From IMG/VR virus record IMGVR_UViG_3300006141_000006: a stretch of 37,717 bases of DNA; one strand, 5' to 3'. Below the pieces are notes generated by a model, which saw nothing but the letters and a program-made list of their open reading frames with translations, searched no databases and was not told the origin of the DNA. Position numbers and translations under genes: made by a program. Each line of letters opens with the position of its first letter. Position 1 is the first letter of the stretch. The stretch is from an uncultured virus (IMG/VR IMGVR_UViG_3300006141_000006). Lineage: Duplodnaviria > Heunggongvirae > Uroviricota > Caudoviricetes. Positions 13,593 to 37,606 of the stretch are shown here, one piece after another.

Positions 13593-13598
13593 AATTTT

Positions 13599-13642: not shown

Positions 13643-13668
13643 GTTCTTTCGCAAAAAAAATTTTCTGA

Positions 13669-15171
13669 CTATTTCAAGTGGTAAACAAGGTTAAACGCCG
13701 ACGGTTTTGACTTCTTTTCTTTATAATAGCGGATAGAAGCTATTACAGAATGCAACAGCGCGTTTTGCGCCGGCGGCTCGCTTGACCGGTACACATCCAA
13801 AACATTTTGTATCTTCTTCGCCCGTTCTTTGCTGTCAAAATTCTTCGCATCTTCAATCTTCTGTTTGGCCTCGCTGCGCCGGGCTTCCAGGTCTGCGAGT
13901 TTTCTGGTGACAGCCGCCATGCGTTCCCGGAAAGTAGGAAGATCATATTCGCCCAGTTCTAGCAGCTCATACAAACGCGTTTTTTGCCGGTTTGCCAAAG
14001 ACAGCTCTTTTTCAAGGGCGCAAAGCGCGGTTTCCAAAGAGGTGGTATCCGCTTCCTGCTCAGGCAGCTCTATTTTCATTTCTTTCAAAATATCGCCCAA
14101 GTGATCAAGGACAGCATTTTCTACCAAAGAAAATTTCGCGGACGCGCAGCAGCCTTTTTTCGGGCAGAGCAGGTACGGCTCGCCTTTCATGGTCATGCGC
14201 TGCATATTCCCGCCGCAGTTTCCGCACTGTACGAGGCCCGCCAGCGGGCTTTTAATGGTTCCGTCCCGTTTCGACGGCCGGTATCTGCCTTTCATAATTT
14301 CCTGTGCCCTTTCAAAAGTTTGATTGTCTATGATGGGAGGATGCAGTCCATCTGTGATCGTCCATTTTTCTCTGGGATTGTAGATGGTAATGTGTTTCAA
14401 ATTGCCCTTTGTGTTTTTCTTGATGTGCGTTTTTTGATCCCATACAATTTTTCCGATGTAAGTTGGATTTTGAATGATCTTCGCAATGCTGCCGCGTCCA
14501 AACTGCGGCGACCGGTGGGGCCGTGCGCCCATTGCGTTGATCTGCCCGGCAATGGAAACACATCCATATCCTTGCAGGTACAAATCGAAAATCATTCGGA
14601 CAAACCGGGCCTCCGGCTCAAAGATTTCCAAGGTGGGCCGCCGGTCCACCGTAATCTTTTTGTACCCGTAGGGCGCGTTTGCTACATAGCAGCCATCCCG
14701 GATAGAACGCTGCAAGCCGCGGCGGAGGCGTTTGTTAATGATCTTGTATTCCCGGCGGGACATAAACGTTTTGAATTCCGCCATTTCGTCGTCCATTTCG
14801 TCCGCCAAATCATAGACCTTATCCGGCGTCACAATAAGCGTCCCGCTTTCCCGGAACGCGTCCAGGATGATTCCCTGATCTTTCATGCGGCCGCGGGAAA
14901 GCCGGTCCAGATCCATGCAGAGTACCGCGTCATACCGGCCCATCTCCACCGCTTCCAACATTTTAAGCATCTGCGGGCGGGCGTACAGGCTTTCTCCGCT
15001 GACGACCTCCGGGTAATAGTCCACGATATCCAGCCCATGCCGCTGGGCGCACTCCTTTAACCATTCCCGGTGCCGGTGAAGAACCTCATCGGTCTCCATA
15101 CCTTCCTCCATGCGGGATTTTCGCAGATAGGCCGCAGCGGTTTTGCCCAGCATATCTTTTTTATAATCCAC
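13669..15171 (-). CDS. Large serine recombinase (integrase)
   Basis: 'YLRKSR' catalytic Ser, 'DLDRLSRG', recombinase domain, CxxC zinc ribbon, coiled coil; GAGGTGA RBS before GTG 15171. Confidence 0.95.
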   Translation of the reverse strand: MDYKKDMLGKTAAAYLRKSRMEEGMETDEVLHRHREWLKECAQRHGLDIVDYYPEVVSGESLYARPQMLKMLEAVEMGRYDAVLCMDLDRLSRGRMKDQGIILDAFRESGTLIVTPDKVYDLADEMDDEMAEFKTFMSRREYKIINKRLRRGLQRSIRDGCYVANAPYGYKKITVDRRPTLEIFEPEARFVRMIFDLYLQGYGCVSIAGQINAMGARPHRSPQFGRGSIAKIIQNPTYIGKIVWDQKTHIKKNTKGNLKHITIYNPREKWTITDGLHPPIIDNQTFERAQEIMKGRYRPSKRDGTIKSPLAGLVQCGNCGGNMQRMTMKGEPYLLCPKKGCCASAKFSLVENAVLDHLGDILKEMKIELPEQEADTTSLETALCALEKELSLANRQKTRLYELLELGEYDLPTFRERMAAVTRKLADLEARRSEAKQKIEDAKNFDSKERAKKIQNVLDVYRSSEPPAQNALLHSVIASIRYYKEKKSKPSAFNLVYHLK

Positions 15172-15195
15172 GAAACAATCACCTCGCTTATTCAA

Positions 15196-15251: not shown

Positions 15252-16415
15252 TCAGGTTTCCTTTTCTAACAGGGCATTAGGGTCTGTATGCTTTGAGAAA
15301 CGGCGGCTGATGACAACTTGATACATATCCTCCGCTGGTTCTATTGGCTTCAGTAGTTTTGTATACCGGCTGATAACTCCGAGCATATACCGGCTGTAAT
15401 TCCCAATTTCATAGATATTTGCAAGGCCACACCGAATCTCTTTTTTATCTTCGTCCGGTATGACGACAATTAGCTGAATCCCATTGACGATGAGGCGGCA
15501 AATCCATTTCCGAACATTGCCTTTATACAAGACGGCTAAATAAGATTCCGTCTTTTTGTATGTAATATCTTCCAGATTAACATAGTTTGCAAATAGATTC
15601 TTTAAGTGATAGTATGCGTTCATCTCCGCACGTGTAGGCTTTGCCGTAGATTCCTTTACCGGCTCGGCAGATACTCCTGGGGTGGGTGGATTATCCGAGT
15701 CCTCACGCGCAAAGAGTGCAGTTTTGATTTTGTCATTCATGGTTTCACTGATGAATTCCTGCATAGAACCCTGTAATATGGGGCGGAACCGCTCCAAAAC
15801 AGCCTGGGTTTTCATCCCGGAATAGACGTCCTGCAAGAAGAATCGGACAAAGTCATCCGACGGCCTTTGGAATTCTTCTGCCAGTATTCCCTTGAAGCGG
15901 CTTTGATATTTCAAGAGGGAAGCCGCGTCAAAAACTTTAGAAACGCTGAAAGTCTCTTTCCGAAATCGTTTCAATTCCTCAATCTGACTTTCTTTCATGT
16001 GAAGCAGATCGAAGTCCAGGAACGGCAGCACATCCATTTTGTTTTGATTTTCGAGGTCCGTATAAAAACGGTAGCGAACGCCGTTGGTCAGGATCGCAAA
16101 TTTCGCAGGCGTGGTGGAGAAGTAGCGGAAAAGCTGGGAATCATGCTTTTCCAGGTTCCGGTTTATAGATTTCGCTTCAATGATGATAACCGGGTTACCA
16201 TCTTGCAAAATGGCGTAGTCCACCTTTTCGCCCCGCTTAATACCTACGTCGGCCACATACTCCGGGGCAAACTCCTTTGGGTCGAACACATCATAGCCCA
16301 GCAGTGAAAAGAATGGCATAATGATTGCAGTTTTCGTAGCTTCTTCGGTTTGAATGGAGTCTTTCAAGGATTCTACGCGCTTGATAAACTGGATTAAGCT
16401 CTCGTTGAATTCCAT
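15252..16415 (-). CDS. Type I restriction enzyme HsdR N-terminal-like PD-(D/E)XK domain protein
   Basis: 'TEEATK..LGYDVF..PEY..KVDYAI..IIEAK..QLFRYF..ILTNG'; AAGGAG RBS. Confidence 0.85.
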   Translation of the reverse strand: MEFNESLIQFIKRVESLKDSIQTEEATKTAIIMPFFSLLGYDVFDPKEFAPEYVADVGIKRGEKVDYAILQDGNPVIIIEAKSINRNLEKHDSQLFRYFSTTPAKFAILTNGVRYRFYTDLENQNKMDVLPFLDFDLLHMKESQIEELKRFRKETFSVSKVFDAASLLKYQSRFKGILAEEFQRPSDDFVRFFLQDVYSGMKTQAVLERFRPILQGSMQEFISETMNDKIKTALFAREDSDNPPTPGVSAEPVKESTAKPTRAEMNAYYHLKNLFANYVNLEDITYKKTESYLAVLYKGNVRKWICRLIVNGIQLIVVIPDEDKKEIRCGLANIYEIGNYSRYMLGVISRYTKLLKPIEPAEDMYQVVISRRFSKHTDPNALLEKET

Positions 16416-16453
16416 ATTCTTTCTCCTTCTATATTTCTGCACCTGACGGGCGG

Positions 16454-17206
16454 TTACTCAAAATAACTTTTGTCGCAGATGCCCAGCACCAGACCTTGGC
16501 AGCGGACATCCTCCGTCATAGGCCGGGGCGGGTAGGCGGGGTTGTGCGAAATCAAAACGCCGTCGCCCAGTTCCTTAATCCACTGCTGTCCGTCCATAAA
16601 GAACACACCGGTCTGACCGGGTATTATCTCGGTACAGGACCGGACAAACAGCTTGTCTCCATCGTAGTAGGTTGGTTCCATGCTGTCTCCGCTGACTGCG
16701 GCCAAAAAGGATGCACCTCGGGGAGGTCGCTTCGTCAAGTCCAATTCTTCAGCTTCGTCATACCCAGCTGGCTGACCCGTTCCTGCACTCATAGGCATGG
16801 TGGGAAACCACTTCATAATATAGACTGCCTTTTTCAGATCATACGGCGATTTCTGCATTAGCTCAGTACATCGCTGATACTCTACATCTAATACACTACC
16901 CACCGCTTTCTTACCGTATTGGTCAAGGGAGCGGTATTTTTTTATGTGTTCCATTTCAGTGAAATCTACTTCAAATCCACTAGATTTTCCATAGTTTGGG
17001 TCAGTAACATCGTCTTTAATCCAAAAATCCAAAGTTGTATTAAAATATTCCGCAAGTTTTTTAAAAGTGGAGAGTTTCAAACCATCGTATCCTTTTTTAT
17101 ACCATCCATCAATCGTTGTGTATGGTATTCCACTGTTCTGTGACATTGAATTCTTATTAAGCCCATATTTTTCCATAAGAAAATCAAGCTTATGAAGAAA
17201 ATCCAT
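16454..17206 (-). CDS. CI-like repressor (HTH plus S24 peptidase)
   Basis: N-terminal HTH, 'SAGTG' cleavage site, 'VSGDSMEP' and 'IKEL' catalytic motifs. Confidence 0.93.
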   Translation of the reverse strand: MDFLHKLDFLMEKYGLNKNSMSQNSGIPYTTIDGWYKKGYDGLKLSTFKKLAEYFNTTLDFWIKDDVTDPNYGKSSGFEVDFTEMEHIKKYRSLDQYGKKAVGSVLDVEYQRCTELMQKSPYDLKKAVYIMKWFPTMPMSAGTGQPAGYDEAEELDLTKRPPRGASFLAAVSGDSMEPTYYDGDKLFVRSCTEIIPGQTGVFFMDGQQWIKELGDGVLISHNPAYPPRPMTEDVRCQGLVLGICDKSYFE

Positions 17207-17228
17207 TATCTCACCTCCTTAGTTTAAT

Positions 17229-17257
17229 ATAGTACCACAGCAGAAAATATAATGCAA
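17229..17257 (-). promoter_or_regulatory. Lysogeny promoter (cI)
   Basis: TTGCAT-17 bp-TACTAT, extended -10. Confidence 0.7.
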
Positions 17258-17263
17258 GAAAAA

Positions 17264-17345
17264 TTTTACCCCATAGGGTAAAAAAAGGCTTGACAACTTA
17301 CGGCGTAGGGTGTATAGTATGCATATGAGTTACCCCGCAGGGTAA
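17264..17345. promoter_or_regulatory. Three operators TTACCC-N4-GGGTAA
   Basis: 17266-17281 and 17330-17345 perfect; 17298-17313 degenerate (TTACGG-CGTA-GGGTGT). Confidence 0.8.
17290..17318 (+). promoter_or_regulatory. Lytic early promoter
   Basis: TTGACA-17 bp-TATAGT. Confidence 0.85.
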
Positions 17346-17363
17346 AAATGAGGAGGTGAACTG

Positions 17364-17570
17364 ATGCTGAGATTAAGGAGAGCTCTTGATTCCAAGCAAA
17401 TGACAGTAAAGAACTGTGCGGAACTCATCGGAATATCTGAAAAGTCGCTTCGCAACAAACTTTCTGGTTCCAGTGATTTTACTTACAAGGAAGTAAAAAA
17501 GTTGTCTGCTATGTTCCCGGACTTTAATATGGACTATTACCTGTCCGAGGACATCAAGCCGGGGGCGTAG
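17364..17570 (+). CDS. Cro-like HTH regulator
   Basis: 68-aa XRE HTH divergent from cI; AGGAGGTG RBS. Confidence 0.88.
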   Translation: MLRLRRALDSKQMTVKNCAELIGISEKSLRNKLSGSSDFTYKEVKKLSAMFPDFNMDYYLSEDIKPGA

Positions 17571-17585
17571 GGAGGGGGTGAGGAA

Positions 17586-17711
17586 TTGCAAATTCCCATT
17601 GACGCCACTACAGAAGAAATTGCCGCCCTTGTGGTGGCGGCACAAGAACGGCAGGAGGTCAAGATAACGATTGATGGCGCGGAAATCTGGAAAGGGTTTA
17701 TTTCCCGTTAG
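17586..17711 (+). CDS. 41-aa hypothetical (not in ORF track)
   Basis: GGGGGTGAGG RBS, TTG; MQIPIDATTEEIAALVVAAQERQ... Confidence 0.55.
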   Translation: MQIPIDATTEEIAALVVAAQERQEVKITIDGAEIWKGFISR

Positions 17712-17755
17712 GAAAGTCCCCGTTGACGTTGAACGAATTCAAGCGGAGTATGAGG

Positions 17756-18277
17756 TCACAACGTATTTCTTTGGGAGGCCCAGCCCGCAGGCAGTTCAAG
17801 TTTCATTTGAACTGGACGCCCACGGGTGGAGCAGACTTGAACAGTCAAGTGAGTGGCGGAATCTTCTGGAAGTTCTTGCATCCCTTCAAAAAGAACAAAA
17901 GCACTTTGTGCGCTCAGCCCGGATACAGCGATAGGCATTGGAGTTGAGAATATCTGCCGCACGCCAGTGATTTCTTTTCCAGAACGGCGGATTGTTTCAC
18001 GCAATAGAGTCGAAGAAGGTGTGCAAGCGGTTTTTCCCTCTCCGCACAGCAGAAAGAATTGCGTCACGGCAATAGAAAGCCTGGATTTGTTCTCAATCCC
18101 AATATGGAGATATGTCACATCTTTATAGGATTTGATGCTATATATCCGGATTCTAAAATTTTTCCTTTTGGAAATGAGATCATTAGCCAGATTATACAAA
18201 GACAGCATCAGACTTAATGACGCAATTGCCGCAGTTGGATTAGTTTTTGCCCATTGCAAGACTACATCTGCAATCAT
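17756..18277 (-). CDS. Moron-like membrane-anchored protein
   Basis: GAAGGTGA RBS, own promoter, N-terminal TM, opposite to early operon. Confidence 0.75.
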   Translation of the reverse strand: MIADVVLQWAKTNPTAAIASLSLMLSLYNLANDLISKRKNFRIRIYSIKSYKDVTYLHIGIENKSRLSIAVTQFFLLCGEGKTACTPSSTLLRETIRRSGKEITGVRQIFSTPMPIAVSGLSAQSAFVLFEGMQELPEDSATHLTVQVCSTRGRPVQMKLELPAGWASQRNTL

Positions 18278-18308
18278 TCTGGTTCACCTTCCTGTCGATA
18301 TGCGTAAA

Positions 18309-18337
18309 ATTATACCGCAACAGGAAGAAAAACGCAA
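18309..18337 (-). promoter_or_regulatory. Promoter of moron gene
   Basis: TTGCGT-17 bp-TATAAT. Confidence 0.7.
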
Positions 18338-18387
18338 TTGCTATTTTCAGTGCTTGAGCAGAGCGGGATACGGCGTGAGAAAGGAGG

Positions 18388-18666
18388 ATGGTTGTGGCCC
18401 CGAAAAAGAATTCAGCCCCCGATATCGAGAAGGATATCCAGAGGCTGAAACGGCAGGTATTATGGCTGACTATTTTGGTTTGTCTCTTGATTGGGCTGAC
18501 TATCAGGCTGTTTTTCGAGTGCAGCAGGCTCAACGGAACTTTGGACCTCATCACTGAGAACATCGGGCTTATCTCCGATTTCAGCGGATTGGTTCTCTCT
18601 AAGTTCGAGCAAATCGACAAGCTCCTGGAATTTTTCAAGGAATTCATAAGGATGCACTTATTATGA
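18388..18666 (+). CDS. Hypothetical membrane protein
   Basis: AAGGAGG RBS; one TM. Confidence 0.6.
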   Translation: MVVAPKKNSAPDIEKDIQRLKRQVLWLTILVCLLIGLTIRLFFECSRLNGTLDLITENIGLISDFSGLVLSKFEQIDKLLEFFKEFIRMHLL

Positions 18667-18947
18667 TGCAAAAGCAGCCCTCAGCACAGCATTTTCAATA
18701 TTGGAAAAAGCTATGCTGAGGTCCAAGATTTGAGCTATTCCAATGCGCTTAGGTCAATGTCCTCATCTTTTTGTGGGATATGGTTATCCAAGTAATTGTA
18801 ACCGAATCGCTGGAAGGCCGCCAGCGTGGCCCGTTGTGTCGGCCCTGCCGGGGCTACGCAACAAAAAACCAACAAATTTAGTCCGGCATTCAGGGGCTGG
18901 TCAATAAGGACAGCCTGAGCCGCATACCATCAGAGGGAGGCGATAAT

Positions 18948-19220
18948 ATGGAATCGGCGATTCAGACAACCGTTACATACAAAACTGAAATTGTCAGCGG
19001 GAAGGAAGTCCAAGTGGAAATCACCAAGCAGATAGGGCTTCAAACCCTGATGCTTGAAGGGAAGCCTACCCTTGTGGAAGCGGTAACCTACAAAAAATAT
19101 CCAGGAAAAAACAACATCCAAAAAAATTTTACCCCTGCAGCTCCGCCGAAAAGCCCGGAGGAAACCGCTGCACAGCTGGCAAGGCTCAATGAACTCTACG
19201 CAAATTTGTTTGTCAGCTAG
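18948..19220 (+). CDS. Hypothetical protein
   Basis: GGGAGG RBS. Confidence 0.7.
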   Translation: MESAIQTTVTYKTEIVSGKEVQVEITKQIGLQTLMLEGKPTLVEAVTYKKYPGKNNIQKNFTPAAPPKSPEETAAQLARLNELYANLFVS

Positions 19221-19263
19221 CGGTTTCACCCTCTCTTGGTTTGCAAAGAAAGGCAGGATATTT

Positions 19264-19404
19264 ATGAAGAAAATACTCCAAATTGAGCCGATTGCTGAAA
19301 ATTTCTGGCGCATAACTACAAAATCGGATGCGGACCTGTTTATTTGCGTGGTGCAGGCACCCACTTTGAAAGACGCTTGGAACGAAGCCCTTAAATCTCT
19401 TTAA
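19264..19404 (+). CDS. 46-aa hypothetical protein
   Basis: AGGCAGGA before ATG 19264. Confidence 0.5.
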   Translation: MKKILQIEPIAENFWRITTKSDADLFICVVQAPTLKDAWNEALKSL

Positions 19405-19419
19405 TTGGGAAGCTGTCCG

Positions 19420-20103
19420 ATGAATACGGAAGAATTACAAAAAAGGATTATAAAGCATGGGAAATGGCAGCGCGGAGAACCAGACGGAGAAAGACTTGAT
19501 CTTCATGGAGAAGATCTCCACGGGGCCAAGCTCTCTGGGGCTGATCTCTCCGAGGCCAATCTCTACGGGGCTGATCTCTCTGGGGCTAATCTCTCTGGGG
19601 CTGATCTCCACGGGGCCAAGCTCTCTGGGGCTGATCTCTTCGAGACCAATCTCTCCTGGGCTGATCTCTCTGGGGCTGATCTCTCCGAGGCCAATCTCTC
19701 CGGGGCCAATCTCTACAAAGCCAAGCTCTCCGGGGCAAATCTCAAAAATGTAATAGTTAATACATCAACAAAATTCTGGGCATTGCAATGCCCAGAAAGC
19801 GGACAATATACCGCATGGAAAAAAGCGGGCGGTCTGATTGTAGAGCTGGAAATCCCTGCGGATGCACAGCGATCTTCTGCCACCAGCCGAAAGTGTCGTG
19901 CAAGCAAAGCAAGAGTTATCAGTATCACAAACACAGACGGGGTGCCAGCAGGAAAACACGTATGTAGTAATTATGACCCTAATTTTGTCTATACCGTAGG
20001 CGAAACCATAGAAGTCTCAAACTTTGACACGAACCGTTGGAATGAGCGCGCACCTGGAATTCACCATTACATTACCCGCCAGGAAGCTGTGCAGCACGTA
20101 TAA
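19420..20103 (+). CDS. Pentapeptide-repeat protein with DUF5758-like C-terminus
   Basis: About 16 L(S/H/Y)GA(D/N/K) repeats; '[32 protein letters not shown]'. Confidence 0.88.
19501..19743 (+). repeat. 15-bp tandem coding repeat (ggggctgatctctct-like)
   Basis: Directly visible. Confidence 0.9.
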
Positions 20104-20139
20104 AAAAAGCCCTGCCGGGCGATCTGGCACCGGCGGGGC
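20102..20139 (-). terminator. Hairpin with U7 tail on minus strand
   Basis: A7 then GCCCTGCCGG...CCGGCGGGGC on + strand. Confidence 0.55.
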
Positions 20140-20194
20140 AAGGATAAAAACAAACGGTATTATAGCAGCTGCACAAATTGCATAGCCGTACAAA

Positions 20195-20274
20195 ACAAAA
20201 GAATTACCCCGCTGAATGTGCGACCATCCAGCGGGGCAGGCAAGACCGGCTGACAAGCATCAAACGGGCTTGAT
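20195..20274 (-). ncRNA. Predicted ~80-nt antisense sRNA
   Basis: Promoter TTGACA-17-TATATT (20309-20281) and hairpin 20206-20237 with U-rich tail, both on minus strand. Confidence 0.5.
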
Positions 20275-20328
20275 AGAACAAATATAGCACAACTCTCTGT
20301 TTCTGTCAAGCCGCAGGAAGGAGAAATT

Positions 20329-20481
20329 ATGAAAATCGACCTGAAATTTTGCGGCGGAGAACTGCACATCGAACGGGATCCCATAGATTTGGACAAGCTC
20401 CAAGCAATCTGCGGCATTTTATACGCCGCCATTGCAGCCGGCGGGATTAACCTGTTTGTGTTCATACTTAAAAATTTTTGA
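20329..20481 (+). CDS. 50-aa peptide with hydrophobic C-terminus (not in ORF track)
   Basis: AAGGAG RBS; MKIDLKFCGGELHIERDPIDLDKLQAICGILYAAIAAGGINLFVFILKNF. Confidence 0.65.
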   Translation: MKIDLKFCGGELHIERDPIDLDKLQAICGILYAAIAAGGINLFVFILKNF

Positions 20482-20495
20482 AAAAGGAGGAGGCT

Positions 20496-20699
20496 ATGGA
20501 AACACTAGGAGACTTCGCGCGGAAAAACAGGTTGGAACGCGCAGGGATTCCCACCATCGTCAAAATCGGCGAAAATACTTACAAGGGGGTTGGACTGGAT
20601 TGGATTCTGGAAAACCCAATTCTCTCCAATCATCCATTGGGAGGTTTTGTAAAGTGGCATAGAGGAACGTCAATTGTTGGAAAGGAAGATAATTTATGA
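20496..20699 (+). CDS. Hypothetical protein
   Basis: AGGAGGAGG RBS. Confidence 0.65.
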   Translation: METLGDFARKNRLERAGIPTIVKIGENTYKGVGLDWILENPILSNHPLGGFVKWHRGTSIVGKEDNL

Positions 20700-21292
20700 A
20701 GCATCAAGAACGTTGCAAATCGGATTTTGAGCCGCCTGATCACCGACCGCTTCGCATATTTGCAGTCAGTTTTCTGCTGCTGCTTGCTTTGACTCTGTTT
20801 TGCATCCTGCGATCAAGCGAAGCAACACAGCATTCGAGGAACGTTCCGCAAAATTCGACGGTCACGGTTCAAATTCTGACGCGCCGCAGAACGGAAAGGA
20901 CCATGAAAAAGTTACATCGCAGCATCCCAGGGATGACCGAAAACGAGTTGATTGAAGCGGCCCTGCTGGCGCGGGCCCAGGTGATCGAGAACTGCACTGT
21001 TACCCACTACGACGCTTGTGTAGCTTGCTGTGGAAAGTCGGATGGCTTTACAATTACTGGCGTTCAGGCAACACCCTATGTCACCGTAGCGGTGGACCCG
21101 GCGGTCATCCCGTTGGGCAGCGATGTGCTGGTTGACTATGGTGATGGCGAAATTCATTATTACCGTGCCGACGATATCGGTTCCATGGTGACGGGGAATC
21201 ATATTGATCTCTGCGTTAGCAGCCATGAAGAAGCTATAGCCTTGGGCGTGCGGACAGCGACAGTCTACTGGGTAGAACAGGAGGATGTATGA
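20696..21292 (+). CDS. Membrane-anchored 3D (Asp-Asp-Asp) domain protein
   Basis: TM, then 'TVAVDPAVIPLGS..YRADDIG..GNHIDL'. Confidence 0.88.
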   Translation: MKHQERCKSDFEPPDHRPLRIFAVSFLLLLALTLFCILRSSEATQHSRNVPQNSTVTVQILTRRRTERTMKKLHRSIPGMTENELIEAALLARAQVIENCTVTHYDACVACCGKSDGFTITGVQATPYVTVAVDPAVIPLGSDVLVDYGDGEIHYYRADDIGSMVTGNHIDLCVSSHEEAIALGVRTATVYWVEQEDV

Positions 21293-21798
21293 CGAATAAG
21301 AAAATCCTGGACGTGACCTGTGGAGCCCGTACAACCTGGTTTGATAAGCACCATCCCGCCGCTTTGTATTGTGACTGCCGACGGGAAACATACTACAAAT
21401 TTTGGAAGAATGCGGGAAATTGTTCACTGAATATTGACCCAGATATTCTCTGCGACTTCACAGCCTTGCCGTTTCCAGACAACACGTTTTCGTTGGTTTT
21501 GTTTGATCCGCCCCATCTGATCAGCGCGAAGGAAACGTCGTGGTTGGTTAAGAAATACGGGAAACTGGACAATAACTGGCCTCAGATGTTGCACGATGGG
21601 TTTGCTGAGTGTATGCGAGTGTTGAAGCCGGATGGAATCTTGATTTTCAAATGGTCTCAATACGACATACCCGCTGAAAGGGTTTGGAAAGCTATTGGAC
21701 AAAAGCCCTTGTTTGGACACCATAGCGGAAAACAATCTCGTACATTTTGGGGATGTTTTATGAAGCTTTTAGATTTGTATGATACCACATTGAGGTGA
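21289..21798 (+). CDS. SAM-dependent amino-methyltransferase (probable DNA MTase)
   Basis: 'ILDVTCG' motif I, 'FDPPH' catalytic motif, 'RVLKPDG'. Confidence 0.8.
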   Translation: MTNKKILDVTCGARTTWFDKHHPAALYCDCRRETYYKFWKNAGNCSLNIDPDILCDFTALPFPDNTFSLVLFDPPHLISAKETSWLVKKYGKLDNNWPQMLHDGFAECMRVLKPDGILIFKWSQYDIPAERVWKAIGQKPLFGHHSGKQSRTFWGCFMKLLDLYDTTLR

Positions 21799-21813
21799 CA
21801 AAGGAGGCACAGA

Positions 21814-22158
21814 ATGAAACTGTACGATAACGACACGTACCGCGATGAGTTTATGGCGATCGTGTACGCTCTTTTACATAGCGACGGGACGAATGACCGG
21901 GCAAATCAAATCATTGACGCGTTTGACAACGCCCCGGCGATTGATGCAGAGCCAATACCGTCAAGAGCCCCGCTGTCCCTGGAAGAACTGCGGGAGATGG
22001 ACGGGGAGCCTTACTGGCACGTTGGATTGCGGGATGATTCTCCAACTCCCCATTGGGCAATCCTGCCTAGCAATGTGGCGCAACGTCCACAAGATTATTT
22101 TTACGGAAAATATTGGCTTGCCTACCACCGCAAGCCGGAGGAAGCCTCATGTACATGA
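21814..22158 (+). CDS. Hypothetical phage protein
   Basis: AAGGAGG RBS. Confidence 0.7.
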   Translation: MKLYDNDTYRDEFMAIVYALLHSDGTNDRANQIIDAFDNAPAIDAEPIPSRAPLSLEELREMDGEPYWHVGLRDDSPTPHWAILPSNVAQRPQDYFYGKYWLAYHRKPEEASCT

Positions 22159-22484
22159 CGGAAGCAGAAATCTGCCGGGATTACCGCCTCACGGCAGACA
22201 CACACAAACCGGAGCAAATTGGGATATTGGCGGACATGAACCTTTGCCGCCGAAGCCAAATCGCCGGCATCCTGGAACGGCACGGGGAATCCATTATCCA
22301 GAAAAGAGCTATGCCCACCAGGGCCGAGATCGATCGCCGGAAAGAGCTGCGCCTTACCATGTACCAGCAGGGGATGACCGATTCGGAAATTTCTGCCGCC
22401 TTGGGAGAATCCTACTACACTACATGCTATTGGCGGCGCGGTCACGGCCTCCCGCCAAACAAAAGGAGAACAAAAAATGGATAA
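22149..22484 (+). CDS. Hypothetical HTH protein
   Basis: GGAGG RBS; 'YQQGMTDSEISAALG..WRRGHGLPPN'. Confidence 0.7.
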   Translation: MYMTEAEICRDYRLTADTHKPEQIGILADMNLCRRSQIAGILERHGESIIQKRAMPTRAEIDRRKELRLTMYQQGMTDSEISAALGESYYTTCYWRRGHGLPPNKRRTKNG

Positions 22485-22647
22485 ACGCGGCGTACCAGGC
22501 GAATTGGCGTGCGTGTGTTGTTTTGAGCCGAATTGCTTTGGCTGTTCCGTTTTTGCACGTGCTCTTTCCTTGGAAACGATGGAAAACCTGCCGGATTACG
22601 CTGAGGAAGGCGAAAAATTTCAGTTGGACTGGGAGGAAAAATTTTAA
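22477..22647 (+). CDS. 56-aa Cys-rich hypothetical (not in ORF track)
   Basis: AAGGAG RBS; MDKRGVPGELACVCCFEPNCFGC... Confidence 0.55.
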   Translation: MDKRGVPGELACVCCFEPNCFGCSVFARALSLETMENLPDYAEEGEKFQLDWEEKF

Positions 22648-22839
22648 TATTGCTGCATTCTGCCACAACAAAAGAAAGTAGGGATTGTCAAAAGGAACAA
22701 GGGAAGAATTGGCCACGTTGCTGGATGGCCGACAAGTGCGACAACACGATTCTCCTGAGATGGGACCGGATCAAGCGGAAATACCTGTCTGGAGACGAAG
22801 ATGCCTAAACCAATACGAAATCACAATCCCAGTAAACCC

Positions 22840-22903
22840 TCCGGCCCTCCACCGGACATTTCCGCCCGGGAGGGAGGGCGGCAGAACCCGGTGGAGGGCC
22901 GGA
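22840..22903. repeat. 16-bp perfect inverted repeat with nested 6-bp stem
   Basis: TCCGGCCCTCCACCGG / CCGGTGGAGGGCCGGA; inner CCGCCC/GGGCGG. Confidence 0.85.
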
Positions 22904-22937
22904 ACGCACTCATATCAACCGGAAAGGAGGAACCCCC

Positions 22938-23294
22938 ATGGACCCCAGTATTCAGAAATCCATCCTGCAAATGGCCCGCGGCGCCATTCAGGAACGGGCG
23001 GACTACGAGATGTCCGGCATCCTAGCCAACATCCTGGACCCCAACACGTCCGCCACCGCGAAGCGCAAACTGACGATCACCCTGGAACTCAAGCCGGACG
23101 ATACCCGGCAAAACATCACCGTCAGCTGCACCGCCAAATCGACGCTTGCCGCTACCAATGCGGTTGTCACATCCTTGTATGTGGCGGATGAGGAGACGGT
23201 GGTGGAGATGGTGCCGCAAATCCCCGGCCAGTTCGGCCTGGACGGCGGCGAACAGGAAGCAGCGCCCCACCTAAAGCTCATCAAAACATCTTAG
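22938..23294 (+). CDS. Conserved phage early protein
   Basis: AAAGGAGG RBS; 'NILDPNTSATAKRKLTITL', 'PQIPGQ'. Confidence 0.8.
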   Translation: MDPSIQKSILQMARGAIQERADYEMSGILANILDPNTSATAKRKLTITLELKPDDTRQNITVSCTAKSTLAATNAVVTSLYVADEETVVEMVPQIPGQFGLDGGEQEAAPHLKLIKTS

Positions 23295-24296
23295 AGCAGT
23301 TCTCTGAAATAGCAATAAGAGAAGAGATATGGTAAGATGGTAGCGGGGTGAGGAAGATGCTGCATAACGAAGCAAGGAATTTGCTGGTAGAAGCGTATGA
23401 GAAAACGCACGACGCAAAAGCAGTTGCGTTGGCATACGGGGTATCTGTGCCAACGGTATACCGGCTGGCAGAGCAAAAGGCCAAAACTGGAAGTGTGGAT
23501 CTGCGCGTAAGTGAACGGGGACGTAAGCGAGTGCTGACGCCGGAAGATTCAGAAAGAATTGCGAAGGCGATAGACAGTCAGCCGGATATTACACTTTCAG
23601 AAATCGTAGAGAAATTGGGGCTGCCAGTTGGAATAGAAACGGTACGCCGGAGAATCCAGGCCATGGGGTATCGGAGAAAAAAGAAGATGATCCACGCTTC
23701 AGAACAGGAGCGTCCCCGATGTGCGGGCCAAGAGAGAACAATGGAGTGGGTTTGCGAAGACAACACGGGCTTCCCGTCTGGTTTTCCTGGATGAAAGTGG
23801 AGTCAATATCAATATGACCAGACGGTATGGCCGAGGAAAAGGAGGCCGGCGGGTGGTAGATCGTGCGCCGCTGAACACACCAAAATCTACGACCATTTTG
23901 TCCTCGATTCGTCTGGATGGAACAATGGCCTTTACGACTTTTCAGGGTGGAACAACAGCGGACAAGTTCCTGAACTATTTGAAAGAGACTCTGGTTCCCA
24001 CCCTCCGGCCAGGTGATATTGTGGTAATGGACAATCTCAGGACTCACCACATCCAAGCGGTAGGTGAGCTGCTCCATGATGCCGGAGCGGAGGCCCTTTA
24101 TCTGCCCGCGTACAGCCCGGACCTGAACCCTATTGAAAAACTTTGGTCTAAGGTAAAAGCCACTTTAAGAAAGCTTCGGGTCCGTTCTCCCGATGCGCTT
24201 GATTCTGCTATTCAATTTGCCTTTCGCTGTGTCTCCCCACATGATTGTCTTGCCTGGTTTCGCCACGCTGGTTATTGTTTATTTTGAGAATTGCTC
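23294..24296 (+). mobile_element. IS630-family insertion sequence
   Basis: Terminal IRs GAGCAGTTCTC / GAGAATTGCTC, flanking TA at 23292-93 and 24297-98, DDE transposase. Confidence 0.93.
23357..24287 (+). CDS. IS630 transposase in two frames (HTH ORF 23357..23794; DDE ORF ending 24287), +1 transition near 23714-23719
   Basis: 'FLDESG', 'VMDNL', 'YLPAYSPDLNPIEKLWSKVK'. Confidence 0.88.
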
Positions 24297-24318
24297 TAAT
24301 TAAAAAGGAGAACCCGAT

Positions 24319-25050
24319 ATGTTGAAAGAATTTATCCAGCACATCCAGCAAACGACGCAGCCCCAGATCCGGACGATTGACGGCAAGACGTTCGTCATCG
24401 CAGCGGGCGGAAGTGCAACGGAAGTCCGCCCCGCCTTTGACCACCCAGACCTGCTGGGTCTGACCTCCCTGGATGCCATGGTAAAGCTGGTCAAAACGGA
24501 AGCGTCCGAACTGGACACGCCCCTGTACATCACCATCCCCGACCATTTGACGGCCCGCTGCTTTGGGCAGCCGGATTTGGATGCTGGATGCTTCCGGCAG
24601 GTCTACTATGAAGCCAACGCCACCGACGTCCCCGGCTGGAACGAGCAGACGCAGCTTGGATTTGAGCAGGCGCAAATTGCGCTTCGGACGCGCTTCCAGG
24701 AAACTGAGGGTACGTTGTATGCCATGAAACTGCTGTCGGACATCAGCTGTGGCGCCAGCGTCATTTACAACGACAGCGGCATCGCCACCACCGTTACCAC
24801 TAAAAAGGGTGTGGCCCTCCAGACAAATGAGCAAATCCGGCCCCTACTCAAACTCCGCCCCTACCGCACTTTTCAGGAGGTGGAGCAGCCGGAGAGCATT
24901 TTCCTCATTCGCGTCAACGACCGGGGCATCAGTTTCACCGAGGCCGACGGCGGCATGTGGAAGCTGAAAGCCCGGGAGACCATCAAGGCATTTTTAGAGG
25001 AGCGGCTTGCCGAGGAGGTTACAGAGGGAGCCGTCATTGTTGCCCTGTAA
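24319..25050 (+). CDS. Conserved phage early protein
   Basis: AAGGAG RBS; 'LRPYRTFQEVEQPES..EADGGMWK'. Confidence 0.8.
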   Translation: MLKEFIQHIQQTTQPQIRTIDGKTFVIAAGGSATEVRPAFDHPDLLGLTSLDAMVKLVKTEASELDTPLYITIPDHLTARCFGQPDLDAGCFRQVYYEANATDVPGWNEQTQLGFEQAQIALRTRFQETEGTLYAMKLLSDISCGASVIYNDSGIATTVTTKKGVALQTNEQIRPLLKLRPYRTFQEVEQPESIFLIRVNDRGISFTEADGGMWKLKARETIKAFLEERLAEEVTEGAVIVAL

Positions 25051-25052
25051 GC

Positions 25053-25092
25053 AAAAGAGCGCCCCGGCGGGCACAGCAACACCCGCCGGGGC
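25053..25092 (-). terminator. 11-bp GC hairpin with minus-strand U tail
   Basis: AAAAGAGC-GCCCCGGCGGG-N10-CCCGCCGGGGC. Confidence 0.5.
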
Positions 25093-25151
25093 AGGATCGG
25101 TGTAAAGCTAATTCTATAAAATGCTATACAAGAAGAACAGGAGGCTTATCC

Positions 25152-26585
25152 ATGAGAACCAGCCAAATCAAAGTCAAAAATTTATTCGGCATTCGGGAAA
25201 TGACCCTGGACGGTAAGTCCGTGGAACTTTCCGGGCCGAGGGGCAGCGGGAAAACCTCAGTCCTGGACTCCATACGCTACGGCCTGACCAACCGCTCAGA
25301 TCGGGATTACATCGTGCGTAAAGGAGCCGATGAGGGTGAAATCATCATTGAAACCGACTCGGGTCTTACCATTGACCGAAAGGTGCTTCCGGAAAAAAGC
25401 GCCGGAACGGTTAAAGTAAAAAGCGGCTCCATGCTTCAGACACGGCCCGCAGAATTTCTCTCCCAGATTTTCACCCCGCTCCAGCTGAATCCGGTGGAGT
25501 TCTGCGAAATGAGCCGCCAGGAGAAAAACCGGGTAATTCTTTCCCTGATTTCATTCTCCTGGGATCTGAACTGGATTCGCGCCCAGTTCGGCGAAATCCC
25601 CGATGGAGTGGACTACTCCAAGCACATCCTGGAGGTCCTGCACGACATCCAGGCAGAAAACGGCGTCTACTTCCGCTCCCGCCAAGGCCTGAACCGGGAT
25701 ATTCGGAACAAGCAGGCATTTATCGCCGATATTGCCGCCGGCATTCCGGAAGATTACGACTATGACCACTGGAACGCCTACAACCTGGGCGACAAATATA
25801 AGGAGCTGGAGCGCATCCGAGAGACCAACAGCCGCATTGAACGTGCAAAGGCGTTTCAGGAAGGTCACGATTCCAATCTCCGAGGCTTGGAGGCGGATCG
25901 GGATATTGAAATTGCCGCCATTGACCGTGAGATCGCCCAGGAGCGGGCGCGGCTTGCTGGAGACATTGAGCGGCTGAAAGCAGAAATCCGCGCCGCATCG
26001 GACAAACTCTCTGGCCTGGACGCCCGCCGCGAGGAACGGGCCGCCGCTGCACAATCCAAATTTGAAGCGTCCGCCGCCAAGCTGGAGCGGGACATGGGTG
26101 TGGCCAGTCAGTACGCCGGACAGGAGCCTCAGGATACGGCGGCCCTCTCCGCGGAATTGGATTTGGCGGAGGCTATGCGGAAGCACCTGAATGAATACCA
26201 GCGGATGACAGCCATGCAGGCGGAGGTTCAGTTACTGTCGGAGAAGTCGGAGGAGCTGACACAGAAGATTGAGCTGGCCCGGGAGCTGCCCGCCAGAATC
26301 CTGGAGACGGCGAAAATCCCGGTAGACGGCCTGACGGTTGTGGACGGTGTGCCGCTGATCAACGGCCTGCCGGTGTCAAACCTCTCCGATGGGGAACTGC
26401 TGGAGCTGTGCGTGGATATTACGGTCAGCAAGCCGGGGCAGCTGCAAATGATTTTAATTGACGGCACGGAGCGCCTGGACCAGCAGAACCGCGAACGGCT
26501 CTACGCCAAGTGCAAAGCCAAAGGGCTGCAAATCATCGCCACCCGCGTGGCGGACTCCGATGAATTGGAGGTGGTGGAACTATGA
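25152..26585 (+). CDS. SMC/SbcC-like ATPase with long coiled coil
   Basis: Walker A 'GPRGSGKT', signature 'LSDGE', Walker B 'ILIDGTE'. Confidence 0.88.
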   Translation: MRTSQIKVKNLFGIREMTLDGKSVELSGPRGSGKTSVLDSIRYGLTNRSDRDYIVRKGADEGEIIIETDSGLTIDRKVLPEKSAGTVKVKSGSMLQTRPAEFLSQIFTPLQLNPVEFCEMSRQEKNRVILSLISFSWDLNWIRAQFGEIPDGVDYSKHILEVLHDIQAENGVYFRSRQGLNRDIRNKQAFIADIAAGIPEDYDYDHWNAYNLGDKYKELERIRETNSRIERAKAFQEGHDSNLRGLEADRDIEIAAIDREIAQERARLAGDIERLKAEIRAASDKLSGLDARREERAAAAQSKFEASAAKLERDMGVASQYAGQEPQDTAALSAELDLAEAMRKHLNEYQRMTAMQAEVQLLSEKSEELTQKIELARELPARILETAKIPVDGLTVVDGVPLINGLPVSNLSDGELLELCVDITVSKPGQLQMILIDGTERLDQQNRERLYAKCKAKGLQIIATRVADSDELEVVEL

Positions 26586-28665: not shown

Positions 28666-30549
28666 TTGAAAATTGAAATACCGGTCTTTGAAAAAGACGA
28701 ATATCTGAGCACAACAACCCCTTACGAATGGCTGTATAGCCATCGGGCAAACCGCCTGGAATTGAAGCAGTTGTGCAACCGCATGGCGGAAGAAGCCATG
28801 AAAGCGGGCGTTCGCAACTTTCCGTCGCTCTATAAGGAATACGTCGCGTCCGTCCAGGGCGGCAGTGTGTTCGGCGTGGAAAACCAGACGGATTTCACCG
28901 GCCAGGAACAGGGCCTTTGGTGTGGGAACTGGACGGCGGACGACGGCGGCATCTACGGCATGGACCGTGCCGGGTTCGAGGTCTGCGCCTGTCCACACCC
29001 AATTCTCCCCACCCGGCGGCTGGTGAACATCGACACGGGCCTGGAAAAAGACGAGCTGGCCCACAGCCGCGGCGGCATCTGGAAGCGGCACGTCTTTGAT
29101 AAAAGCACCATATCCGATGCGCGGTCCATTGTCAAGCTCTCGGATTATGGTATCGCCGTCAACTCGGACAGTGCCAAGCACCTGGTCCGCTTCCTGGGGG
29201 ACGTGGAAAGTCTGAACTATGATCGCATTGAGGCGGTCAACAGTATTGGGCGCCTAGGCTGGATTGATGGCTATGGCTTTTCCCCCTATGAGGAAAACAT
29301 CGTATTTGACGGTGCGGACCAATATAAGGATTTCTTTGAGAACGTTCGGGAGCGTGGCAGCTATGACGCCTGGCTGGATGCCTGCCGCTCGTTCCGGAAG
29401 GGCGAAGGTATCCCCACCCGCGTTATCCTGGCGGCCTCCTTTTCCAGCGTGTTGGTACGGCCTTGCGGGGCGCTGCCCTTTTTCCTGCATCTCTATGGCG
29501 GGACCGAAGTGGGCAAAACGGTGGGTCTGAAGCTGGCGGCCTCCGTCTGGGCCAACCCGGAGGCAGGGCGGTTTATGCAGAGCTTCAACGCCACCAGCGT
29601 CGGCAAGGAACTGGGAGCCTCGTTCTACAACTCGCTCCCCTTGATTTTGGACGAGCTGCAAATCAAGGACGGCAGTCCCGGCGTCCAGCTGAAATTCCAG
29701 CAGATGATTTATGAGCTGGCGGAAGGCATCGGGCGCACTCGGGGAAAGAAGTCCGGCGGTCTGCAAAAAACCGGCACATGGCGGAACTGCATCATCAGTT
29801 CCGGCGAGTACCCGCTGATTGACAGCACTACGGCAGCGGGCGCGGTCAACCGCACCGTGGAAATTCACTGCCAGGACGTGAAGCTGTTCCAGAACAACTG
29901 CATCGGCGACGGTAAAGCGGTTTCTATCTTTCTGGAACGCAACTACGGCTTTGCCGGGAAAGTATTCGTGAAGCAACTTCAGCAGGCAGGAAACATGGAC
30001 AAGGCCATGGCGCTTCACGACCGCTTCATCGGTGAGATTACCGGCCGGAGCGATGTCACGGACAAACAAGCGTCCTCTGCGGCGCTGCTCCTGACAGCGG
30101 ACGCGCTGATAGAGGAATGGATCTTCCAGGACGGAATCCGCCTGGAAGCAGACGTTCTGATTCCCTTCCTCTCTACCAGAGCAGACATGGACCGGAACCA
30201 GCGGGCCCTGGAATTCCTGCACGACCAGATTGCCATGAATCCCGTCCACTTTGACCCGGACCGGGCGGAGGAAAAATCCGCAGCCATCTGGGGCGACGCC
30301 GATAAGAAATACATTTATATCATCAAATCGCAGTTTGACAGTCTCCTGAACGACAATGGCTTCAAGGCAGATGACTTCATCCACTGGGCCAGAGAAACCG
30401 GTGTCATCAAAATCGGAAAGGACGGGAAAAGTACCATCCCACACCGCTGTGGGGGAAAACTGGCCCGCTGTATCTGGCTCACGACGCAATCGGCTCCCAA
30501 AGAAGAATCCGCTGCATTTGAACCGGAAGATGAGTTCCTTCCTCTGTGA
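28666..30549 (+). CDS. DUF927-type replicative helicase/initiator
   Basis: 'RLGW', Walker A 'GTEVGKT', 'LPLILDE', 'GRTRG..WRN..ISSGE'. Confidence 0.85.
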   Translation: MKIEIPVFEKDEYLSTTTPYEWLYSHRANRLELKQLCNRMAEEAMKAGVRNFPSLYKEYVASVQGGSVFGVENQTDFTGQEQGLWCGNWTADDGGIYGMDRAGFEVCACPHPILPTRRLVNIDTGLEKDELAHSRGGIWKRHVFDKSTISDARSIVKLSDYGIAVNSDSAKHLVRFLGDVESLNYDRIEAVNSIGRLGWIDGYGFSPYEENIVFDGADQYKDFFENVRERGSYDAWLDACRSFRKGEGIPTRVILAASFSSVLVRPCGALPFFLHLYGGTEVGKTVGLKLAASVWANPEAGRFMQSFNATSVGKELGASFYNSLPLILDELQIKDGSPGVQLKFQQMIYELAEGIGRTRGKKSGGLQKTGTWRNCIISSGEYPLIDSTTAAGAVNRTVEIHCQDVKLFQNNCIGDGKAVSIFLERNYGFAGKVFVKQLQQAGNMDKAMALHDRFIGEITGRSDVTDKQASSAALLLTADALIEEWIFQDGIRLEADVLIPFLSTRADMDRNQRALEFLHDQIAMNPVHFDPDRAEEKSAAIWGDADKKYIYIIKSQFDSLLNDNGFKADDFIHWARETGVIKIGKDGKSTIPHRCGGKLARCIWLTTQSAPKEESAAFEPEDEFLPL

Positions 30550-37229: not shown

Positions 37230-37504
37230 TGGAGCTCATCCCACACGCCACCCGGACAAGCTTCCGGCAGCTGCTCATGCGGAGGAGGCTGGAGGTTCCT
37301 CCGGTCCAAGAACTGGTCCTGCGTCAAAATTCCCGGATACAGCGGTCCGCCTACATTTTGCGTTGGCGGGACGGCCAGCGTAAGCACCATATGGCGGTCT
37401 ATTACTTCTGTGCCGGTCAGCCCTACCTGGAGGTGGATTCCAAGGTCGTCCCCATTACCTTGGAGGAGGTGCAGATATATGGTATGTGCAAGGAAAAAGA
37501 ATGA
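37223..37504 (+). CDS. Hypothetical protein
   Basis: GGGAGG RBS; start 37223 or 37229. Confidence 0.65.
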   Translation: MLMELIPHATRTSFRQLLMRRRLEVPPVQELVLRQNSRIQRSAYILRWRDGQRKHHMAVYYFCAGQPYLEVDSKVVPITLEEVQIYGMCKEKE

Positions 37505-37559
37505 GCCCCGCACAGTTAGCAGACTGTACGGGACTCGGGGCGCTATAACAATCAAGTAC
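37493..37559 (-). ncRNA. Predicted ~65-nt antisense sRNA
   Basis: Promoter TTGATT-17-TATACT (37594-37566); 14-bp hairpin 37503-37536 with two G-U pairs on minus strand plus U-tract. Confidence 0.5.
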
Positions 37560-37606
37560 ATGGTTAGTATAGCATCCCACATCTTGAAAATCAAGGGGGA
37601 TTTGTT

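Follow-up and report, generated by a model that had tools for sequence, protein, structure and literature searches.

Why should the early operon of a phage carry, in the gap between two of its genes, near-consensus promoters that point against the direction of the operon and run almost at once into transcription terminators? The question is raised by the 37,717-nt window analysed here, the whole of an uncultured Caudoviricetes record (IMG/VR IMGVR_UViG_3300006141_000006), in which a preliminary description made from the letters alone had noticed tandem antisense promoter–terminator micro-units at 20102..20309 and proposed them as a candidate small-RNA system. We refer to these as unit A and its neighbour A2, and to the similar elements at 25.1 kb and 37.5 kb as units B and C. 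The sequence features, their non-random co-occurrence, the strand to which the structure belongs and its conservation with compensatory change in relatives support the view that A, B, and C are genuine transcription units on the minus strand, kept by selection and yielding short non-coding RNAs. With moderate confidence, we read units A and C and the B units as probable cis-antisense small RNAs, similar to OOP of phage lambda and directed against the leader of the next early gene.

Unit A opens on the minus strand with a promoter at 20281..20309, where direct reading and a scan both bore out the motif first described: TTGACA (the −35, at 20304-20309), a 17-nt spacer, TG, and TATATT. The promoter agrees with the consensus at 11 of 12 positions, in addition to the TG, and has the best score in the window, tied with the plus-strand early promoter at 17290; its −35 lies only 6 nt from the Shine–Dalgarno sequence of the next plus-strand gene. 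The predicted RNA of ~78 nt (20197..20274, minus strand), with a 5′ end placed 7 nt past the −10 and a 3′ end within the U-rich tail, comprises a 5′ hairpin (~20272..20241) and an intrinsic terminator, a minus-strand hairpin at 20205..20238 with 14 pairs. That hairpin and its U-rich tail had also been described, and the stem does run into ATTCTTTTGTTTTG at 20204..20191, a U-tract that is interrupted; the two odd pairs of the stem are, as claimed, G·U when read on the minus strand, whereas the plus strand has A/C mismatches in their place. None of 200 shuffles folds as well as the unit itself (−37.8 kcal/mol, z −5.8). The accompanying statement that the RNA holds no open reading frame needs a small correction: an 18-codon ATG frame is present, but it has no ribosome-binding site. 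Longer minus-strand frames that run across the units (101, 79, 170, and 69 aa) have no PHROG match and were rejected as genes, as they would need read-through of promoters and terminators.

The co-occurrence of promoter and terminator was measured over the early operon (17207-37717) with a detector of our own, with arbitrary thresholds, that combines a promoter score of at least 10 (TG counted), one hairpin no weaker than −12 kcal/mol, and, 12-110 nt past the promoter, a tail rich in T. It found three minus-strand units and no plus-strand unit, against a mean of 0.175 units per strand in 200 dinucleotide-preserving shuffles, 0/200 of which held three or more. With hairpins of −20 kcal/mol or better, two units were observed where the shuffle mean was 0.02, and again 0/200 shuffles reached two. 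Taken singly, promoter-like sites (15 vs 12.2 ± 3.4) and terminator-like sites (35 vs 23.9 ± 4.6) are not clearly enriched. The third of the detected units is weaker—TTGACA-17-TATGGT with a modest hairpin and a T-rich tail, at 29047..29135 on the minus strand—and lies inside the primase/helicase gene.

The structures belong to the minus strand. Folding energies on the minus and plus strands are −37.8 and −29.4 kcal/mol for unit A, −31.7 and −28.5 for unit B, and −25.9 and −18.1 for unit C; the G·U pairs in all three stems would be A/C mismatches if read on the plus strand. Only on the minus strand are the hairpins succeeded by T-runs; the plus strand has A-runs before them and nothing T-rich after. 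Rfam gave no match at gathering score over the entire window, and in E-value mode the best sub-threshold match within 20000-20400 reached 21 bits against a threshold of 80, in keeping with the earlier remark that no named family was known for these elements.

Conservation of unit A was followed at two distances. In the closest clade (five viral contigs, G001, and G002), the 225-nt gap at 20104-20328 that holds units A and A2 is identical at 222-223/225 positions (98.7-99.1%), too similar for a test of covariation; the few differences all fall in hairpin stems or the A-run, and one of them, an A/G polymorphism at 20215, turns a minus-strand G·U pair into G-C. Among relatives of the upstream gene (19405-20103) at 68% amino acid identity or less, the gap has no match, save for 14 bases in L057 at the level of chance (E 0.75), and in the distinct distant relatives among those listed, the next gene follows with a short gap at most and without such a unit. 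A weak nhmmer match led instead to two diverged loci, L163 and L165, that align along the entire unit. Both share its long 5′ hairpin (CAAGCC...GGUyUUG) and its terminator, and both keep its junction with the Shine–Dalgarno sequence of the neighbouring gene; each of the three sequences has G·U pairs on the strand of the unit. A 7-nt indel offsets the spacer in these loci, and TTGCGG, 7 nt further up, serves as the −35, so that the 17-nt spacer and the TG-extended −10 are retained; this promoter, TTGCGG-17-TGgTATAAT, is found in 17 viral contigs.

A scan for the pattern of the shared block recovered 22 viral contigs, five of the window type and 17 of the L165 type. The latter collapse to eight distinct sequences—related, and thus not independent of each other, as holds for the sequences compared throughout—which differ almost solely in the two hairpin loops. 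Only five of the 97 non-loop positions vary, compared with five columns in the 7-nt loop 1 (Fisher test, loop 1 vs non-loop columns, p = 5e-5); loop 1 occurs in seven versions, and so does loop 2. What lies around the unit changes throughout. The plus-strand neighbour is a 64-aa gene (MNENDK..), an MSEIT.. gene, or the 50-aa gene of the window, and past the terminator, on the unit's strand, stand differing cargo genes of 121, 135, or 190 aa, which in the variants examined (L229, L231, L233/L165) have their own TGnTATAAT-type promoter. The complete 42-kb phage G063 gives the full order: an early promoter (TTGACA-17-TG-TATATT), a 59-aa gene, the antisense cargo and unit, the MNENDK gene, and a transglycosylase gene, with a CI-like helix-turn-helix gene diverging from the early promoter, a layout that mirrors the window. 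The same map rules out the L165-type unit as the leader of a repressor operon, as it puts the early promoter further on, reading back through cargo and unit. A second antisense unit (TTGACG-18-TG-TATAAT, a 46-nt gap, and a terminator) lies ~460 nt from the A-type unit in L163 and L165, directly upstream of the transglycosylase gene; the two units thus bracket two small genes.

The preliminary description saw the layout recur at 37.5 kb and, in part, at 25.1 kb; the former copy is complete, and the latter is partial as stated, a hairpin without a good minus-strand promoter. Unit C, at 37.5 kb, has its promoter at 37566..37594 on the minus strand (TTGATT, a 17-nt spacer, TG, TATACT), the −35 abutting the Shine–Dalgarno sequence of the gene at 37608. 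The predicted RNA of ~64 nt (37496..37559, minus strand) has an unpaired 5′ part, GUACUUGAUUGUUAUAGCG, ahead of a terminator hairpin (37536..37503) that includes three G·U pairs and whose tail overlaps the TGA stop (37502-37504) of the upstream gene. Two relatives in which the neighbouring gene is 69% identical (L158, L159) carry the promoter as TTGATT-17-TG-TACAAT and retain the complement of the Shine–Dalgarno sequence together with the −35 (CCCCCTTGATTTT), the 5′ sequence GUAyUUGAUUGUyAUAGC, and the stem, in which U-A has become C-G and U·G has become C-G. The coding flanks on either side cannot be aligned, and conservation is limited to the unit. A pattern scan for further C-type units returned only the three already known. 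Back to back with the unit C promoter stands a plus-strand TTGAAA-16-TG-TATGAT (37584-37611), possibly incidental, the −10 of which includes the ATG of the next gene.

Unit B (25052..25119, minus strand) retains an intact terminator (25093..25060) but has a broken 5′ hairpin and lacks a −35. The copy nevertheless matches a covariance model of its family, R1, at E = 2.5e-9, with non-standard pairs in the 5′ helix, and a relative whose neighbouring gene is 84% identical in amino acid sequence (L182) has the intact form; judged by these features, the window copy is a decayed unit. To define the family, we searched upstream of homologues of the following gene (25152-26585, an SMC-like ATPase, phrog_1499) in viral contigs and genomes. 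Among 45 distinct upstream regions from viral contigs, 34 have a unit adjacent to the gene start, three have one within 700 nt, and eight have none; the corresponding numbers for 24 distinct regions from genomes, including those of cultured Oscillospiraceae and relatives, are nine, six, and nine. An antisense unit of the B type is therefore found no more than 700 nt upstream of 52/69 distinct homologous genes, and a sense-strand unit upstream of none (0/69; 0 in either set). Dysosmobacter segnis BX15 (L191), Oscillibacter ruminantium GH1 (L193), Caproiciproducens faecalis AGMB10547 (L204), Clostridium minihomine Marseille-P4642 (L205), and Faecalispora jeddahensis JCD (L206) are among the cultured bacteria that carry units of this family or related ones. 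The design is the same upstream of most of the homologues: a nearly invariant antisense TTGACA overlaps the ATG of the gene and is followed, after 17-18 nt, by TATCAT, TATGAT, TAAAAT, or TATAAT, then by a short 5′ hairpin, and finally by a G+C-rich terminator set against the stop codon of the preceding gene, with a run of six to seven T that begins a few bases past that codon.

Seventeen distinct B-family RNAs were folded jointly with RNAalifold, yielding two helices in which 9/18 pairs show compensatory change. Paired cells of the alignment make up 96.4%, against 82.5 ± 1.4% in shuffles and 29-53% in slid controls, and the covariation score is 0.451, against 0.195 in shuffles, 0/500 of which score as high. 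Non-Watson–Crick cells are again oriented, with 15 G·U on the unit's strand and three on the other (15 vs 1 in the 5′ helix). A distant subgroup (L109, L123-L127, L135, L193, L204-L207) has a shorter RNA with a U-rich, single-stranded 5′ part. Promoter hexamers and stems, on the conservation of which the preliminary description depended, are thus conserved for A, B, and C. A single family comprising all three is unsupported: the designs are alike, and model R1 sees A and C through the terminator only.

Two further observations concern the B family. Its antisense −10 is always flanked by a G+C-rich inverted repeat of 4-5 bp, ~30-45 nt upstream of the phrog_1499 start (loci L076-L135, L180-L210), the arms of which change in step (CCCC/GGGG, GCCC/GGGC, CTCC/GGAG, GCTCA/TGAGC, CTGC/GCAG, CCGCT/AGCGG). 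In L097, this repeat is a perfect 17-bp palindrome. The inverted repeat might serve as an operator or might form a plus-strand hairpin shortly before the ribosome site. In addition, L076:1381-1466 contains a tandem duplication of ~21 nt (GCCAGTCCCGCCCCGCCGAAGT) between the 5′ hairpin and the terminator of its B unit.

Element A2 has a different character. Its extended −10, TGCTATAAT, is found where first reported (20159..20167, minus strand) and has no usable −35; by post hoc arithmetic, a perfect TGNTATAAT is expected in the 225-bp gap with a chance of ~0.007. Only 13 nt, without an open reading frame, separate TGCTATAAT from the terminator (20102..20140, minus strand), a hairpin at 20140..20109 followed by T7 at 20108..20102 that overlaps the TAA stop of gene 19405-20103. 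The single odd pair of this stem is a wobble on the plus strand only, as had been conceded at the outset, and the fold is weaker on the minus strand (−21.7 kcal/mol) than on the plus strand (−27.3 kcal/mol). Relatives have TGgTATACT or TGtTATAAT at this place, ahead of cargo frames. Because related phages thus carry variable minus-strand genes behind TGnTATAAT at the homologous position, A2 is most probably a vacant cargo slot, where a minus-strand moron is represented by its promoter and its terminator, the gene being absent or lost; that it is a second designed small RNA is less likely. An RNA of ~50 nt may arise as a by-product, and the A2 terminator would back up that of unit A, a read-through transcript from which would measure ~175 nt. 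From the tandem system first proposed, unit A is thereby retained as a conserved RNA gene, and A2 is recast as a cargo promoter and terminator with no gene between them.

How might such a unit act? From the sequence, we infer its transcription, exact RNA ends, target, and effect, and three properties suggest a role in cis: one side of the unit is always tied to the start of the gene that follows on the operon strand and the other side varies, variation is confined to loops, as recognition initiated by loop–loop contact predicts, and in both A types the complement of the −35 falls in a plus-strand hairpin formed by the Shine–Dalgarno sequence and its complement. The −35 stands beside the Shine–Dalgarno sequence in A and C—as had been noted for the complete copies—and on the ATG in B. 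In the window, the leader hairpin (20294..20324, plus strand) pairs an anti-Shine–Dalgarno stretch (20294-20306) with the Shine–Dalgarno sequence GGAAGGAG (20316-20323) of the 50-aa gene; in L165, AUCCUCCUU pairs with AAGGAGGAU, and in both, the −35 complement lies in or atop this hairpin. According to the folds, the leader segment opposite the 5′ end of the small RNA vies for the anti-Shine–Dalgarno as long as the leader is free, and the Shine–Dalgarno sequence is then unpaired with a probability of 0.58-0.59. With this target stretch blocked, the value falls to 0.02-0.07 in both A types; a bound RNA is thus predicted to shut the ribosome site without pairing to that site itself. Shuffling the target stretch lowers the mean probability to 0.10 (L165) and 0.20 (window), and 2% of 300 shuffles match the native value in each case. 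No such switch appeared when the leader of unit C was folded.

Under the cis-antisense reading, unit A would be a minus-strand gene for a ~78-nt non-coding RNA with a near-consensus promoter for the housekeeping sigma factor, a 5′ hairpin, and an intrinsic terminator, and would be one of several units (A, C, and the decayed B) that punctuate the long plus-strand early operon. Its RNA, perfectly complementary to the untranslated mRNA leader just upstream of the next gene, would act in cis by loop–loop contact with the mirrored hairpins of the mRNA, then by duplex formation, and then either by RNase III cutting or, in the A type, by capture of the stretch that keeps the anti-Shine–Dalgarno busy, upon which the ribosome site would close and the downstream gene would be turned down. 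Convergent transcription may contribute interference. The switch is predicted for the A types only; for B and C, the default would be RNase III processing at the junction or polymerase interference.

Several observations weigh against this reading or limit what can be drawn from it. The window copy of B has lost its promoter and 5′ hairpin, such that units of this kind can decay, and 17/69 neighbourhoods of the B type are without a unit at the thresholds used; model R1 matches A and C weakly, by way of the terminator (E 0.065 and 0.15). Identity within the clade of the window barely exceeds that of the flanking genes, so that this clade offers no conservation test, and the substitutions found in relatives within the A2 stem (20113, 20130) are plus-strand wobbles and minus-strand mismatches, which lends no backing to a selected minus-strand A2 RNA. 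In any hairpin, constraint is lowest in the loops, where some variability is expected without selection. The leader switch is a product of thermodynamic folding of short pieces, and the closing hairpin alone is no better than shuffles (z −0.4 and −1.1). Strand counts of the detector over the fetched loci (44 vs 5; 9 vs 3) are biased and inflated, as many loci were fetched via genes adjacent to units; one of the five "plus" matches is a reversed copy of unit A. The sequencing runs that contain window DNA (X1, X3, X7, X4 over 16000-26000) are assembled contigs, three of them probably from DNA, and are silent on RNA, strand, ends, and level.

Could the promoters matter solely through the polymerases they load, blocking early read-through by collision or as sitting ducks while the terminator keeps a functionless antisense transcript short? 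The promoter is the most conserved part of the unit, to the point of near-invariance of TTGACA in the B family, and is always placed where the next gene starts, facing the early promoter; a roadblock, however, would need neither the 5′ hairpin that compensatory and G·U changes preserve nor the single-stranded 5′ sequence kept by unit C, and we regard interference or insulation alone as improbable. We assign a similarly low probability to an RNA that pairs in trans with other messages, whether these come from the host, from other genes of the phage, or from superinfecting relatives. Homologues of unit A do move as a self-contained module among differing flanking genes, their near-consensus promoters would be expected to be active in the lysogen, and hypervariable loops would suit specificity groups, but duplex energies of the four predicted RNAs with the 33 gene starts of the window stay within the shuffled background in a crude scan that ignores intramolecular structure. 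Rather speculatively, the cis-antisense reading might be extended to an RNA-coded layer of immunity, in which RNAs made by the lysogen would shut the matching leaders of incoming or leaking early mRNA, with recognition through two loops under diversifying selection, so that phages with different loops would escape one another, with several checkpoints per operon and one slot serving as a landing site for cargo; we think this unlikely, if conceivable.

The remaining explanations locate the signal elsewhere. Units A and A2 might together be the functionless leftovers—promoter(s), leader, and terminators—of a lost minus-strand cargo gene, given that the unit of L165-type phages is followed by a variable minus-strand cargo gene under a TGnTATAAT promoter of its own, that A2 is exactly a promoter and a terminator without a frame, and that distant relatives of the upstream gene have no such gap. 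This account suits A2, for which alone we prefer it, but not A, the type of which varies in its loops alone even as the cargo behind it is exchanged; B and C, moreover, stand alone in many diverged phages, with the terminator against the stop codon of the convergent gene, and for the unit as a whole, a relic is quite improbable. It is very improbable that the hairpins are instead plus-strand elements, stabilisers at the 3′ or 5′ end or processing sites of the early mRNA, with the minus-strand promoters an incidental likeness: changes in the A2 stem are tolerated as plus-strand wobbles, the plus strand also folds significantly (z −4.3 and −4.8), and the leader hairpin around the −35 belongs to it, but G·U pairs in A, B, and C and the T-runs after the hairpins are on the minus strand, where near-consensus promoters are conserved in 52/69 neighbourhoods. 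Least probable of all, in our judgement, is a type I toxin–antitoxin pair, in which the 50-aa protein (20329-20481) would be the toxin and the unit A RNA a Sok-like antitoxin. A small protein with a hydrophobic C-terminal half is encoded directly downstream, and the RNA is antisense to the leader of its gene, with a predicted anti-Shine–Dalgarno switch; homologous units nonetheless adjoin unrelated, non-hydrophobic genes (MNENDK.., MSEIT..), B precedes an SMC-like ATPase and C a transglycosylase, and no small hydrophobic partner recurs.

The units lie within a phage of recognisable organisation. The window (52.5% G+C) is a temperate phage or prophage of the Oscillospiraceae type, relatives of its genes being found in Oscillospiraceae and neighbouring Clostridia and its DNA in mouse-gut runs. 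A serine integrase (13669-15195), an endonuclease (15252-16415), and a CI-like repressor (16454-17206) are encoded on the minus strand; downstream of the plus-strand early promoter at 17290 (TTGACA-17-TATAGT), plus-strand genes prevail to the end of the window, among them a methylase, the SMC-like ATPase, an exonuclease, a primase/helicase, a helicase, a PAPS-reductase-like protein, a radical SAM protein, and a transglycosylase. Unit A and A2 lie between a plus-strand gene for a protein with pentapeptide repeats and DUF5758 (19405-20103), whose TAA stop (20101-20103) is overlapped by the A2 terminator tail, and the plus-strand 50-aa gene (20329..20481). The 50-aa protein has no family match, and a homologue search confined its gene, like a 67-aa gene, to the same five near-identical viral contigs; neither of the two small plus-strand genes has a PHROG match, and a metagenome scan with the 67-aa protein gave none.

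Other features of the region were noted in passing. An IS630-like insertion sequence interrupts the early operon at 23292-24299, with a helix-turn-helix gene (23357-23794) and a DDE_3 gene (23721-24287) in overlapping frames; its depth is 4-6 times that of its surroundings in the runs, with loose ends on both sides, and one contig joins 23291 straight to 24297. Right after the cro-like gene lies a candidate minus-strand moron (17621-18720) with frames at 17756-18277 and 18240-18671 and strong terminator-like hairpins on the minus strand (17653..17621 and ~18720..18677); in a related phage, 17727-18647 is swapped for 821 other bases, and no family match was obtained for the region on either strand. 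The pentapeptide-repeat gene holds a perfect 10-bp palindrome with a 4-nt loop (TTCTGGGCATTGCAATGCCCAGAA, 19774-19797), followed on the minus strand by a T-rich tail. A hairpin of 20 pairs (13598-13643) just past the integrase gene, at what is likely the prophage end, may be a terminator or part of the attachment region.

To our knowledge, antisense control of phage early operons is textbook knowledge for lambda and hardly charted beyond enterobacterial phages. In lambda, OOP RNA is made from the promoter pO and acts in an RNase III-dependent manner. It measures 77 nt and is antisense to cII (PMC7067206, PMC12197685). The units resemble it in their sequence features—a short RNA, below 100 nt, with its own convergent promoter in the early operon and an intrinsic terminator—in their position near replication genes (B family), and in their predicted cis-antisense action. 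OOP covers tens of bases at the 3′ coding end of cII; A2 and C, in contrast, overlap only a stop codon or a few bases, and the units mirror the leader of the downstream gene, occur several per phage, and belong to phages of Gram-positive Oscillospiraceae hosts. The comparison implies no sequence relation; Rfam gave no match, the presence of an OOP model in that database being unchecked.

In design, the units appear nearer to the antisense control of plasmids than to OOP. In CopA/CopT of R1, Inc RNA of ColIb-P9, RNA I of ColE1, and the countertranscripts of pT181 and pIP501, a constitutive stem-loop RNA is made opposite the leader of the controlled gene, recognition proceeds through loops, binding refolds the leader rather than covering the ribosome site, and changes in the loops create new incompatibility groups. 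The units likewise place a stem-loop RNA with conserved stems opposite a leader, and variation of the A type is concentrated in the loops; plasmids, however, control replication genes in this way, whereas the units face assorted phage early genes, and kissing, switch, and specificity groups are only predicted for them. The parallel drawn in the preliminary description, with P1 c4 and P4 CI RNAs, is weaker than either of these. The c4 RNAs of P1/P7 and the CI RNA of P4 are processed from longer transcripts and act in trans on repeated target sites. They are small phage RNAs too, and hold lytic functions down in the lysogen, but each unit has its own promoter, 20-45 nt before the terminator hairpin by sequence, and its own terminator, and the scan of the 33 gene starts found no repeated trans sites and nothing above background. 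A model for the proposed immunity layer is offered by prophage antisense RNAs expressed in the lysogen, namely sar/sas of P22 and STnc6030 of the Salmonella prophage BTP1. STnc6030 is reported to exclude superinfecting self-like phage by base pairing, and point mutants escape (PMC7067206). At ~786 nt, opposite late genes of an enterobacterial phage and without a conserved compact two-hairpin design, STnc6030 differs clearly from the units.

Our literature search, which reached its sources in part, returned no description of such units in Gram-positive or Oscillospiraceae phages, and the accessible text of a 2025 review (PMC12197685) lists no early-operon RNA of this kind from Gram-positive phages, a term search giving only SprY of S. 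aureus. The units therefore seem to represent a form of control akin to that of lambda OOP but not described before. They add at least two to three conserved, uncatalogued families of small-RNA genes in temperate phages of the Oscillospiraceae, which are abundant gut bacteria; they display a fixed geometry, in which a promoter interlocks with the site where ribosomes bind the next gene or with its start codon, and, in one family, variation confined to hairpin loops. Several cultured carriers of units exist, making the question directly testable. If the RNAs work as predicted, they would provide compact, orthogonal RNA switches and a testable route by which prophages could silence their lytic genes, time their expression, or exclude their relatives.

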